A stretch of 63,100 bases of DNA, filler included, from Rhabdomonas costata (lineage: Eukaryota): assembly GCA_019059605.1 (NCBI GenBank). It is 23 parts of 23 records of this genome, joined end to end, with 100 filler letters (N's around TTAATTAATTAA, not from the genome) between each part and the next. Parts side by side here need not be neighbours in the genome. Positions count along the whole stretch, not along the records: positions 19,257 to 21,896 come from JAHMHO010002490.1; 22 more parts are not named here. One strand, given 5' to 3'. The notes beneath the pieces were generated by a model. That model had not been told where the DNA came from and made no database searches. It was given only the letters and a program-made list of their open reading frames with translations. Below are positions 19,157 to 54,865 of this stretch, piece by piece; the stretch's first letter is position 1, and every line of letters starts with the position of its first letter. A program made the translations under genes and the position numbers.

Positions 19157-19309
19157 NNNNNNNNNNNNNNNNNNNNNNNNNNNNNNNNNNNNNNNNNNNN
19201 TTAATTAATTAANNNNNNNNNNNNNNNNNNNNNNNNNNNNNNNNNNNNNNNNNNNNTGTGATGGGTGTGATTGGTTGTTTTTGGAGTAAGGTATGCCATG
19301 CCATTGCAT

Positions 19310-19650
19310 GCATGATGACACCATTAAAACTTTGTACCTTCAATGTAACGTCATCATGCGTGCAATGGCATGGCATACCTTACTCCTAAAACGAACATCA
19401 TTCACAGGATACAGTGCCATTCCGGCTCCCCTGGAATCGGCCCCATGATGACCACCTTGATTCAGGAAATGGGACTGTTCTGCGGGTGCCTCCCCTACAG
19501 CCAAGATGCAAAGGAGGGCTGGCACCACGCGTTGACCAACGCGGAGGGGTGCCTCACAAACAGACCCCAAACCGACGTTCGAGTAAATGCAGCAAGAAGA
19601 CACATGATACGTTCTGTACCACAAGCAACCAAGAATCTACAGCAGTTCCG
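19310..19650 (+). mobile_element. Decayed apurinic-like endonuclease N-terminus of a non-LTR retrotransposon
   Basis: TPLKLCTFNVTS followed in another frame by TLIQEMG resembles the APE motifs (i.twNv.g; lQE). The sequence is frameshifted. Confidence 0.35.
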
Positions 19651-19804
19651 ATTCTATTCAGTTTCTGAGGAAAGCAAGAACTCTCTTGGATAGCGGCCTG
19701 CAGACGCCTTCCTCTGCGTGGTCCCGCTCGATTGCCTCGGCGTAGCCTGAGAAAGCAGCAGCAGCAGCATCAGTGAGAACAGCAGCCGCAACGAGCTGCT
19801 TTGC

Positions 19805-20922
19805 TCCGAGCTCCGTGAGCTCCTCGTCGGAGTCGTTGACCCCGGGAACAAGAAGAGTAGTCACCTCGACATGCACCCCGGCCTTCACCATCGTCTTGAT
19901 TCTCAGCTTGATTGGCGACAGGTGAAGCCCTGTGCAAGGGGGGGGGGTTGACACCCAAAATACTGAATGTCATCTTATGAGAGAGATTTTTCCTTGGGGC
20001 TGACATTTAGTGTAAAAATGTTCATATGAAATGTCTGTGAGATGTCGCATTTGAACAGCATGATCGGTTGCAAACATCTTCGCATCAGCGCAATGCAGTG
20101 GCCCTACTTTAACTTTTGGCACTGTTGTTTCTGCTAACTTTTTGGCATTGCCTGTGCCAAAGGAAGAGCTATTACTGCACAAAATCCAGTTATGTCCTGC
20201 AACTGGCATGACTCCCGAAAAGTTTGAGGGGAGGAAGACAATGGCTGAAAAATGCCGAGTGGCACATTCCTTTATTTCTGGATGCTTCACTTGAGGGAAG
20301 GGAAATCATAAACGCAAATATTTGATGAACGGGCAATGCGGCACCGCTGACATCTGCTGGGAATTTATTGGCCATTTATTGATAAAAAGTAACAATAACG
20401 TATTTTCTTAAATTAACATGCTCCATAAGACTTCCAACTGACGTGCCCCATTAAGAAGCCCATTTTCACATACGCTCGTTTCTTGACGTTACACCTTTTA
20501 AGGTGCTGCTGGCTTTGCGGACCTGCTCGTTGATACAAAAACACACGCATCCGATGAGAATAACACCGATTGCCAACCAAGGTTTTAGGAGACAGGAATC
20601 ATATACGAGGTGAAAGGATTCCGCGTGTCCTGCAAGTACTGTACCCGATTTGGCGCCCGGCCCATATCCACACGTCACAAGGGCAAGTCTCAAAATCATT
20701 CCAGACAAAAGTTGGGATGCGCGCTCTGAAATAAGTACGCAACCACGCACACACGCAACCACACATACCGGTGAACTCCGAGTAGGTCTCCTCGCGGTAG
20801 GACTTCAGGTCCACATTTGCGGCGTCAAGGTGAGGCATCACCAGCTTCAAAGCCTCCCCAGACATGTACCCGTTGGTCACCAGCACCGTTAACAGACCAC
20901 TCGCCTTGGCAAGCTTGAAGGT
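19805..20922 (-). CDS. amrS: AmmeMemoRadiSam-system radical SAM enzyme (AmrS-like), two internal exons
   Basis: Exons 20922-20769 and 19929-~19805 are joined by a phase-1 GT-AG intron: TFKLAKASGLLTVLVTNGYMSGEALKLVMPHLDAANVDLKSYREETYSEFTG-LHLSPIKLRIKTMVKAGVHVEVTTLLVPGVNDSDEELTEL. The CxxxCxxC exon is not seen on this contig. Confidence 0.85.
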
Positions 20923-21464
20923 CTGCCACGAAAAAGGAATCCGAACGAGTCATGTGAAGCCGAACCTTAGCCACCGCCCTCGCCATCACTGAGGCTATTC
21001 ACAGGCACAACGAAGCTGTGAAGGGGGGGGGGGGAGCAGTGACTGAGCAGCTCATCTGTGAGTTTCCTTTGCCCTTTGCAATAAGTCATAAACCAGATGG
21101 AAGATGCAACTTCCTTACACTCTTCAAGTGTAAAATGCAAACGAGTTTCGAATACATTGAAAAAGCTAATTAATTCGCAAAAAATCAGAATAGCAAACGC
21201 TGAGGAAAATTCGCCCCACCGCATTTTTACTTGCAAACTCTCCACGTTGAATATCTTGATTTTTTATCATGCAAATCACGTTTTGAGTATGACAGCATTC
21301 AAAACGGTTTTCTTGCAAGGGATGATTTGTAATTGTGCGAGTAAAGCTGTTTAAAATTTATTGAAAATGTCATTTAAAGTACATGCAGGCGCAAAGGCAA
21401 GCTTGCTCGAGCACCGGCACGTTGCACATTCGAGTCCTCACCGTCAAGTGCAGAAAATGGGAAG

Positions 21465-21896
21465 GTCCGTAGCTGCCTGTCTGCCTGCCGTGTGACCCAT
21501 CTTCTTCGAGCCCCTTTCGTTCGACAGTGGAGCCTCTCTGGCAGACCAGGCGAGGCGGGCCATCAAAGATTTTCTGAATGGCGTGGTCGGGGCACCTCTG
21601 TCGGAACAGCAGTGGGCACTCGCCAGTCTTCCTACCCGCTTGGGTGGCCTGGGCGTATTGGACCCTTCTTCTGTGCAGCCGGCTGCGCATCTTTCCTCTT
21701 TCCTGTCGACGTCGTTGGAAGCAATCACATTCCGCCTTCCTCAGCTGGACGTCAGTCACGGTCAGTTAATAGCCCTTGCTCAGTTGACACCTTCGGCACG
21801 CGCGTGGACCGAAGCCCTGCGCCCATTTCTCGAAGTGGGTCTTCCGTTGAGCGCAGAAGTCGGTGCTCACCCCGAGTTTGAACGCTGGTGCGAGCA
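21465..21896 (+). mobile_element. CRE/SLACS-type non-LTR retrotransposon fragment (post-RT region), frameshifted
   Basis: VRSCLSACRVTHLLRAP, a frameshift near 21511, then QWALASLPTRLGGLGVLDP...AAHLSS. This matches the CRE-clade LP.r.GGLG block. Confidence 0.7.
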
Positions 21897-52111: not shown

Positions 52112-52419
52112 GGAATGTGNNNNNNNNNNNNNNNNNNNNNNNNNNNNNNNNNNNNNNNNNNNNTTAATTAATTAANNNNNNNNNNNNNNNNNNNNNNNNN
52201 NNNNNNNNNNNNNNNNNNNGTTTGTTGGGACTGGTGGAGGATCGTACTTCAACAACACTTGGAACGTTTACCACGCTTTTCATGTGGACGGTGCTTTGCA
52301 AAGGATGAGTTTAGTCTTTGCGTCGCCTGGTGAAGGCATTTTTCTGGTGCCTTGGGATCTCAAGGTCATTGAGATGCAGAAATTGTTTGACAATCGGTGG
52401 CACTTTCTTGCAATCACGG

Positions 52420-54865
52420 TCCACATGAAAAGCGTGGTAAACGTTCCATGTGTTGTTGAAGTACGATCCTCCACCAGTCTCAACATAATTCAAAACGCGC
52501 TCCAGAAGCACAGAATAAATCTGGGTCATAGTATACTCTGATGCTTCCCACAAATCGGACGCAGCCCATACAAACCCGTGGGTGAGATTGGATGCTTTCA
52601 TCCAGAAGCAAAACGTAACTCCAGAGTTGGCTTTGCTCCTTGTCGTCTGCAACTTAAGACCAATGTTGTAATCTGATGGCGGATTAATCAACTGCCATGA
52701 AGAGCGGAGCCAATCTTTTCTCGAAGCAGAACTGAACAGTACACCTTTCGGGCTCCAAAACGGAGGCGTGGGAGCGAGCTCCAGTCCGACAAACACCACG
52801 TTCATCGGATCGTCAGATGACAGGTTGAGGGTAGCATTCTCATAAATTAGGTGAAGTGGGCCCGGAAGGCAGGGAATCCAGCGAACTTTTCGGCGAATAG
52901 TGATGCTTCGGTACAAAGTGGCACCTGATATGACGCGGCACGACTGGTTAGTCTCCGAAAGGTCCACGAATTCATACGGCTTCGGGGTGGCAATCGCGCT
53001 TGTCCGACCCAGAGGTGACAACGAGTTTGGATCAACTGCAGCGTAGAGACTGTACATCTTCTGGGCGACAACAGATGGTTGACACGTGATCCGAACGAAG
53101 AGAGGCTGTGCAAGAAAGCCCCGAATCCGTTTATCAGAAATGCAGGTGTCACACTCCACATTCTCAAACTCCATGGCCTGGCAATCAGCAAGGGAATTTG
53201 CAAACGCGACCCTTGCAGTGTACTGTCCTTGCTGGTTGCGGTGGCACGTTGCTTTCACATACATGAGAGTTTCCGATAATCCCGCTGACTGCAGAATCAC
53301 GCACCGACCATGCGCAGGAGAGTGAGCCACAACAATGGGGATGTAACTCATCAAGGTATTGGAGCAGTTTGCGCTTGTAAAAGTCTCCACAAATATCTCG
53401 GTGTTGTAATCAGGATAGTCGGAAAGCACATAAGCCAAGGTAAACCCGGCAAGGATCACTGTCATTACGGGAAGCAGGGAAATCAAGGCAAGCCGCAGCT
53501 CAAGACGTGCCATCACAGTTTTCAGCACAAAATAACCGACAGGAATCAATGCCGTGAACGCTGCGAAAACCACAATCCCGGAGATCAGGCTGCCATACAG
53601 GGAATACTGCAGTGCCGGGGTGTGTGAAGGTGTGCTCCAGCCCAGCGCAGAAGAGCGTACGTACAAAATGGTGTTTGATCGAAGTGAAGCACTGTTGGGA
53701 GTAATCTTTATCAGAACGGCGGAGGTGTTATCGACGGTCTCTGGAAACCTCAGGGTGCAAACAAGACGATAACCGCAATATCCAGGCGTATCTGCGGGAA
53801 CAACATGCCACTGCCACATGTTCGGAGAGCACTGAACACTTGCTCCACCACGACTGAACATGACAGAAATATCCGTTGCATTAACACGGGACGCGTACCA
53901 CGCAGCAGTCTCATTCGTGGGAGTGCGACTCAGAGACACCAGCAAGGTAACACTTCTCACGTACATTTGGGAAAGCAATGGAATTTCACAGAGCGAAGCC
54001 GTGCAATTTGCAGAGCTCAATCCAAACATCAAAGTGTTCGCAATAACAGCGCCAGAAGCAATATCCTGAGACACGGCGTGGGAAGAATTCAGCATAGCGC
54101 GGTAGAACAGCAAGTCCTTTGCTCCTGTGGGATAGTCGTTGATGAATTTTGTAAACAGACCCCCTCCGTTCCCAAGGTTCGCATACGTAGACATGCACCA
54201 TCCGGACGGTTCAGATGTTGCAAACGGAAGACCATTGGATATGGAGGTCAAGAACGCCAAGGTGCGGGTGTAGTTCATTGCAGGTATGGCATCAACCGCG
54301 AGAGTGTAAACAACAAACCCATAGGGCGATAACGCAGTTGAGCACATCACTGTTCCGGGAGGACAGGAGCACACGCACTGCAGCATCTCCTCTGACCATC
54401 TCACCGACACCGCAGCGGTACCGGCACAAGAGGAAGCCAATGTGCACACATCAGGGGTCACCCCATAGTCATTCGCTGGGTAAGGGTTGTACAACTGATT
54501 CCATACATAATATGCAGTGTGGATGCCCCCGTCCAGCGCAGAGTACGTATCAAGAACATTACACACCGCCGAAAGTACCAGGCATTTAAAGTCGGCGGTG
54601 ACGACAAAGGTGTTGGCCCCCGTGATAATGGCTCTCGCTCGGCAGCTACGGAAGTCACCATCGTCTGCAAAGGTTGAGAATTTCGAGCAACCTAGCCGGG
54701 CTGTTCGGCTGAGCAGTGAAGCTTCGCACCAGTTCTCGTCACTGCCGTCAGGACAGTCGTTGAAGCTGTCACAAAGCACATACTCGGGAAGACATGAGTA
54801 AGTATCTTGGCACCAGAGTCCTCGTCCGTCCGCACAGCCAGACAGGTTGGAATTGACCACCAACC
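52420..54865 (-). CDS. Large Cys-rich membrane protein: LDL-receptor class A repeat, two TM helices, LamG/concanavalin-like domain; intronless fragment
   Basis: CQDTYSCLPEYVLCDSFNDCPDGSDENWC (LDLa), two hydrophobic helices, and GVTFCFWMKA. The true continuation (..LFDNRWHFLAITV) lies on the inverted contig end, so the ORF-track stop at 52311 is an artefact. Confidence 0.8.

Follow-up and report, generated by a model that had tools for sequence, protein, structure and literature searches.

On a single short contig of the Rhabdomonas costata assembly we have recognized two internal exons of what we judge, with a probability of roughly 0.72 on the sequence evidence, to be an intron-containing nuclear eukaryotic gene of the AmmeMemoRadiSam radical SAM enzyme family (AmrS, TIGR04337). 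The window, by which we mean the whole stretch of DNA analysed (63,100 nucleotides, filler included), consists of 23 contigs, each 2640-2653 bp long, strung together by N...TTAATTAATTAA...N linkers, and features on either side of a linker are unrelated. Both AmrS pieces are located on one contig (19257-21896, 2640 bp), and all that we say about the genome is drawn from it; the window as a whole amounts to ~61 kb of short, unrelated contigs, and no repeat common to this contig and the other 22 was found.

The two exons are read from the minus strand. Exon A (20769..20922; 154 nt, 51 codons plus 1 nt; GC 0.571) encodes TFKLAKASGLL...YSEFT+G, corresponding to profile positions ~139-194, and lies in an open frame that starts at 20949 and within which TFKLAKASGLLTVLVTNGYMSGEALKLVMPHLDAANVDLKSYREETYSEFTG is encoded. 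Upstream it is bordered by the 3' end of a preceding intron (20923..20952, minus strand), comprising an in-frame TGA (20950-20952), a pyrimidine-rich tract and an AG (20923-20924); the sequence directly preceding the exon, TTCCTTTTTCGTGGCAG, contains the sole AG between that stop and the start of homology. Exon B, with a minimal extent of 19805..19929 on the same strand, covers profile positions 194-235 and may extend to ~19781 or 19793; its peptide, GLHLSPIKLRIKTMVKAGVHVEVTTLLVPGVNDSDEELTELG, is encoded within an open frame starting at 19969.

Between the exons lies a phase 1 intron of spliceosomal type (19930..20768, minus strand), with a GC content of 0.449 and 8-10 stops per frame. It starts with GTATGT, the donor after exon A reading ACCG|GTATGT, and ends in C10-TTGCACAG, where the run of ten G at 19938-19947 of the plus strand becomes the pyrimidine tract of the acceptor when read on the minus strand. 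A further homopolymer of the plus strand, twelve G, occupies 21023-21034. The exons abut at profile position 194 with one split codon and zero residues lost or duplicated, and exact collinearity of this kind across a GT-AG interval is far beyond chance. A GT donor, an AG acceptor with its pyrimidine tract, and the exact restoration of frame and homology thus mark the interval as a probable spliceosomal intron. The sequence-only reading had proposed an 839-nt GT-AG intron, and this proves correct to the nucleotide (20768..19930, exactly 839 nt, with abutting profile positions on either side); the three peptides it quoted, VTNGY, DAANVDLK and VEVTTLLVPGVNDSDEE, are all present in the translations.

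Composition also sets the exons apart. Their GC content is 0.57-0.58 and their third-position GC (GC3) is 0.785, far higher than the 0.50 and 0.55 of two long ORFs located elsewhere in the window, and the GC3-rich exons contrast with a GC-poor intron and with their surroundings. An Rfam scan found neither a group I or group II intron nor any other Rfam family on the contig, its sub-threshold, miRNA-like matches being caused by an imperfect palindrome. This palindrome (141 nt, 19266-19406, arm identity 79%) lies at the far left end of the contig and could be a foldback repeat or a contig-end assembly artefact. The dinoflagellate spliced-leader motif gave 0 matches at up to three mismatches. Elsewhere in the window, the neighbouring contig (16509-19154, minus strand) is crossed from end to end by an uninterrupted frame of 882 codons with polyketide-synthase dehydratase (PS-DH) and enoyl-CoA hydratase domains, and by these domains it is part of a large modular PKS-like gene, intronless across 2.6 kb. 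Another open frame (52314-54863, minus strand, 850 codons) has no Pfam match.

Both pieces point to the same family. Against NCBIfam, TIGR04337 ranks first for exon A (35.2 bits, E 5.9e-9, 51 residues at model positions 137-187 of 349) and for exon B (22.9 bits, E 3.4e-5, 45 residues at model positions 191-230 of 349), leading the next family by ~8 and 7.6 bits, respectively. On exon A the runners-up are YjjW with 27.3 bits and PFLA with 22.2, and on exon B the next family is BssD with 15.3 bits; the activase models TIGR02493 and TIGR02494 score 22.2 and 13.6 bits on exon A and 12.3 bits on exon B, below AmrS and far below their cut-offs. The curated TIGR04337 cut-off of 220 bits applies to a whole protein, and the exon scores are close to the per-residue density that it implies, on a fragment too short to pass it. 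Our own profile, built from 100 full-length relatives (320-370 aa) among the 120 listed matches of exon A, was run against 2284 six-frame ORFs and recovered exon A at E 2.7e-20 (139-194) and exon B at E 3.5e-10 (194-235), with the third-best ORF at E = 1. Of the columns invariant in 10 reference AmrS proteins, 17 of 20 are kept in the aligned span, the three missed being gaps upstream of exon A that arise from the alignment program's placing of one residue; within the matched central block (A, V.NG, E, N.D.K, Y, L, E.T.L..PG.N), none of the 16 invariant columns is missing. The AmrS assignment made earlier, for which a comparison with the AmmeMemoRadiSam and PflA-type models had been suggested, therefore holds for each exon separately, ahead of both PflA- and YjjW-type activases.

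The fragment has no close relative in the collections searched, as judged from the match statistics and identities that follow. Exon A gave 174 matches at E <= 0.001 among 199 candidates in a search of 5.8 billion clusters, with identities of 52-68% over most of the exon and one match of 75% that covers 78% of the exon. When 1.84 billion representatives were searched exhaustively with phmmer, 350 matches had an E <= 0.001 but not one had an E <= 1e-10; the 150 that were listed show identities of at most 69%, and 62-64% is the top value for matches spanning most of the exon. When the spliced 93 residues were compared with 407 stored proteins, the most similar were P0294 (58.7%) and P0173 (57.8%), followed by prokaryotic sequences at 54-57.6%. 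P0294 is the EukProt protein RCo033262 (397 aa) and is 78% identical to P0173, an intronless ORF of 393 aa on a Logan contig of 1487 bp. A third eukaryote-labelled protein, P0183 (NCBI KAJ4458131.1, 456 aa), is named 'putative AmmeMemoRadiSam system radical SAM enzyme [Paratrimastix pyriformis]'. The eukaryotic origin of these three is that given by their source labels, to which P0183 adds a contig of 332 kb.

Against the cut-off of 220 bits, TIGR04337 scores are 362.5 for P0183, 281.5 for P0294, 268.8 for P0173 and 299.4 for P0138, the last an ENA-derived protein of 520 aa that joins AmrS to a C-terminal flavodoxin domain. Another of the proteins gathered, P0248 (803 aa), is an AmrS split by an intein with a LAGLIDADG domain. 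The gene on our contig is thus not the first eukaryotic AmrS in the databases. The sequence-only reading took the family to be mainly prokaryotic and named prior description in protists as evidence against its proposal; that view has to give way in part, since the eukaryote-labelled P0183 and P0294 pass the cut-off, and it stands in so far as no describing paper was found. In the portions of the literature that we consulted for AmmeMemoRadiSam, for AMMECR1 or Memo with radical SAM, and for Paratrimastix, no description of a eukaryotic AmrS was found.

The placement of the fragment leaves several origins as candidates. We built a maximum-likelihood tree of 65 rows, comprising the fragment, 40 phmmer representatives (300-470 aa), P0138 cut to 345 residues, P0294, 12 matches from the exon A cluster search and 10 matches from the search that yielded P0294; 109 representatives outside 300-470 aa were excluded, as was P0224, an apparently frame-shifted sequence. 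The fragment sits on a long branch within a set of 17 rows (support 99/92, from a bootstrap not fully settled), and the three members of this set that carry names are all archaeal: Methanobacterium, Methanobrevibacter/Methanoflexus and Thermoprotei. The eukaryote-labelled P0183, P0173 and P0294 fall outside the set, as does P0138. Constraining the fragment to form a clade with P0173 and P0294 lowers the log-likelihood by only 5.9 units (AU p 0.443). The phylogeny with eukaryotic sequences that had been proposed thus does not join the fragment to the eukaryotic copies, but neither does it reject such a clade, and the candidate readings are retention, transfer from an archaeon, and kinship with the other eukaryotic copies.

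The surroundings of the exons bear on whether this DNA is eukaryotic. Neither the 975 nt upstream of the exons nor the 540 nt downstream showed AmrS homology, as is expected of a split gene; in a bacterial gene carrying an insertion, the flanks would still be homologous. The upstream flank holds a non-LTR retroelement fragment (21465..21896, plus strand), decayed and 5'-truncated, which runs off the contig and is separated from exon A, upstream and on the opposite strand, by 543 nt, placing it in the presumed upstream intron of the AmrS gene. This position weighs against our main reading, as does an exon GC3 so far above that of the two long ORFs. It represents a region C-terminal to the reverse transcriptase domain, with 83-86% identity to residues 721-863 of P0121 (1187 aa, PF00078), and its sole relative is an ENA cluster consisting of P0121 and four members. 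A frameshift near 21512 and the 5' truncation are as in dead non-LTR copies. The abutting exons, the GT-AG interval, the difference in composition between the exons and what surrounds them, and the reverse-transcriptase fragment on the same contig together argue for a split eukaryotic gene rather than a bacterial contaminant. An earlier claim of nuclear origin, made from the intron, thus gains a second footing in this decayed LINE-like element.

The exons hold ~93 of ~340 residues, or 27% of the protein. By tblastn and profile search, a CxxxCxxC exon was found neither on the contig, which ends 975 nt upstream of exon A, nor elsewhere in the window. The N-terminal Cys cluster and the C-terminal Cys pairs, invariant in our alignment A1 and situated outside both exons, likewise have no match in the window, and the C-terminal third of AmrS was not recovered there with 100 prokaryotic queries, the profile or five closer relatives. 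With 100 of the 120 listed relatives (320-370 aa) as queries, tblastn produced 602 HSPs at E <= 10, among which exons A and B alone are significant; the five closer relatives, run against the contig, gave no AmrS piece beyond these exons. One HSP on another contig (50573-50689) was considered as a further AmrS exon and went unconfirmed (tblastn E 0.004, profile E 4.1). A plus-strand resemblance inside the intron (20218-20367, QWLKNAEWHIPLFLDA ... APLTSAGNL) to the AmrS block expected after exon B was set aside as well: in comparison with P0173 and P0183 it has an E of ~1-1.7 and two stops, and is compatible with chance. With flanks of 540 and 975 nt, a measured intron of 839 nt and so short a contig, missing exons are to be expected.

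Downstream of EELTELG, the sequence-only reading had noted a break in homology, and both the profile search and the alignment with P0173 bear this out. The latter runs past EELTELG through AKQLVAAAVL to 19775, and there is no profile match beyond ~19775. In frame after EELTELG, a read-through tail (19661..19804, minus strand) continues for 48 codons, none of them with family homology, until a stop at 19658-19660; it contains a (GCT)5 repeat, has a GC3 of 0.54 versus 0.785 in the exons, and is probably for the most part intron or non-coding sequence. Candidate donors are in-frame GTs with a first intron base at 19792 or 19780, and a GC at 19804. Most simply, the sequence after EELTELG is the start of the next intron, within ~12 codons, a reading suggested by the drop in GC3 from 0.79 to 0.54 at this point. 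The fusion or chimera that had been offered for the break finds no support, the break being more simply accounted for by the beginning of an intron or by a truncated relic.

Three other explanations of the contig have to be weighed against that of an intron-split eukaryotic AmrS gene. It is highly improbable that the pieces belong to another radical SAM family, such as the PflA/YjjW-type activases of glycyl-radical enzymes. YjjW and PFLA are indeed the next families for exon A, the solved structure nearest to the AmrS profile is that of PflA (3c8f, 7.3e-16), and many AmrS proteins carry the JGI label 'pyruvate formate lyase activating enzyme'. However, TIGR04337 leads on both pieces, the source-given names among the 120 listed matches are all AmrS or this generic JGI label, and full-length relatives score 269-362 bits for TIGR04337, whereas no activase model exceeds 71 bits on them. 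Barely credible, too, is a contaminating bacterial or archaeal AmrS gene with an insertion, or a chimeric assembly. In its favour, the sequences closest to exon A alone are prokaryotic (56-68% identical across most of its length), the fragment groups with archaeal-type sequences in the tree, and the GC3 of the exons is unlike that of other ORFs in the window; yet such an insertion would have to carry exact GT...AG ends and a pyrimidine tract and split one codon without loss or duplication. Moreover, homology stops at the AG acceptor of exon A, 9 codons upstream of which there is an in-frame stop, and residues 1-138 are absent beyond it; the contig lacks any group I or group II intron or other Rfam family, and it bears a eukaryote-type reverse-transcriptase element.

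The remaining explanation, which we consider rather unlikely, is that the contig preserves a gene relic, with exons A and B as the sole remains of an AmrS pseudogene that has been truncated or rearranged. Loss of its 5' part may have occurred at the retroelement insertion or beyond it, and its 3' part may have decayed after EELTELG. The lack of any further AmrS piece on the contig or in the window is consistent with this, as are the 48 codons through (GCT)5 to a stop without family homology, the nearby decayed LINE fragment, and the weak, chance-compatible resemblance on the opposite strand to the missing next block. On the other hand, 93 codons run without stop or frameshift, the invariant residues of the matched block are fully kept, and the strong third-position GC bias of the exons is unlike their surroundings; the flanks are also of about the size of the one measured intron, so that exons lying off a short contig are expected. 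The fragment is too small to separate an intact gene from a relic.

If the contig does carry part of an intron-split AmrS gene, the other exons would lie beyond its 2.6 kb. Those for the N-terminal third would supply a Cys-rich region along with the CxxxCxxC [4Fe-4S] site, and those for the C-terminal third would supply the PWH..F.P block together with the terminal Cys pairs. A further intron would begin no more than ~12 codons after EELTELG. Homology with the radical SAM superfamily predicts that the protein, when complete, would bind a [4Fe-4S] cluster, cleave S-adenosylmethionine reductively to a 5'-deoxyadenosyl radical and act on a substrate, and it may be partnered by AMMECR1-like and Memo-like proteins. 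The function of AmrS is known by inference alone.

AMMECR1 and MEMO1 are conserved eukaryotic proteins whose human forms are linked to disease, and in prokaryotes both are tied to AmrS by name and co-occurrence. To our knowledge, neither has a settled biochemical role. The main paper on Memo-AMMECR1 systems is reportedly that of Burroughs et al. from 2019. In the parts of their text consulted, Balaji and Aravind (2007) describe a radical SAM enzyme and a dioxygenase-like protein as neighbours of AMMECR1 and propose RNA base modification, and an excerpt of Kaur et al. (2020) cites, as newly described, the Memo-Ammecr1 systems of Burroughs et al. (2019). Within the window, a tblastn search of ~61 kb of unrelated short contigs found no Memo or AMMECR1 at E <= 1; the queries were the Memo and AMMECR1 domains of P0151 and three Memo-AMMECR1 proteins, and at that threshold only P0288 matched, through its radical SAM portion. 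We also examined 80 prokaryotic AmrS loci with 5-kb flanks (L001-L080), a biased sample in that the loci were the best-matching ones from the first 600 pattern hits; iterated profiles detected Memo or AMMECR1 within ~5 kb at four of them (L032, L037, L078 and L080). Pfam identified neither in 110 ORFs from 15 of the 80. With only 4 of 80 loci showing such neighbours, the link among the three proteins in this sample lies mostly in their co-occurrence and, occasionally, in fusion rather than in adjacency. In P0151 (838 aa), a bacterial protein, radical SAM, Memo and AMMECR1 are all joined in a triple fusion. Rubrerythrin, NadA and RtcB recur as AmrS neighbours at several of the 15 Pfam-scanned loci.

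The sequence-only reading went further, suggesting that this protist may carry a complete three-part system. That it keeps a working, archaeal-type AmrS beside AMMECR1 and MEMO1 homologues, as a complete AmmeMemoRadiSam system either inherited from the archaeal ancestor or acquired from an archaeon early enough for intron gain, we regard as decidedly doubtful. If true, it would provide a eukaryotic setting in which to find the long-sought substrate common to the human disease-linked AMMECR1 and MEMO1, and eukaryotes that still bear the radical SAM partner could reveal what the trio does. As it stands, the fragment would add one more eukaryotic lineage with an intron-bearing, if incomplete, AmrS. 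Its value is that of a pointer to the full assembly and not of a discovery in itself.

Compared with known systems, the exons resemble bacterial and archaeal AmrS, with which they share TIGR04337 as best model, 54-58% identity over 93 residues and every invariant residue of the matched block. In contrast to those genes, the one described here is split by an intron, is present only at profile positions ~139-235 of 349, and has its cluster-binding and Cys-rich parts outside what was found in the window. PflA (PDB 3c8f and 3cb8) belongs to the same radical SAM superfamily and is the nearest structure to the AmrS profile, our search having found no solved structure of AmrS itself; exon A aligns to TIGR02493 positions 79-138, but the activase model scores lower than AmrS on both exons. 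AmrS is ~100 residues longer than PflA and has extra N- and C-terminal Cys motifs, with which the invariant Cys columns of alignment A1 are consistent. The eukaryote-labelled AmrS proteins P0183, P0294 and P0173 are full-length members of the family. The fragment stands apart from them in the tree and its identity to them is scarcely above prokaryotic values, but P0294 and P0173 are the sequences most similar to the spliced residues, and the GLHLS.IK stretch with which exon B opens is shared with these proteins.
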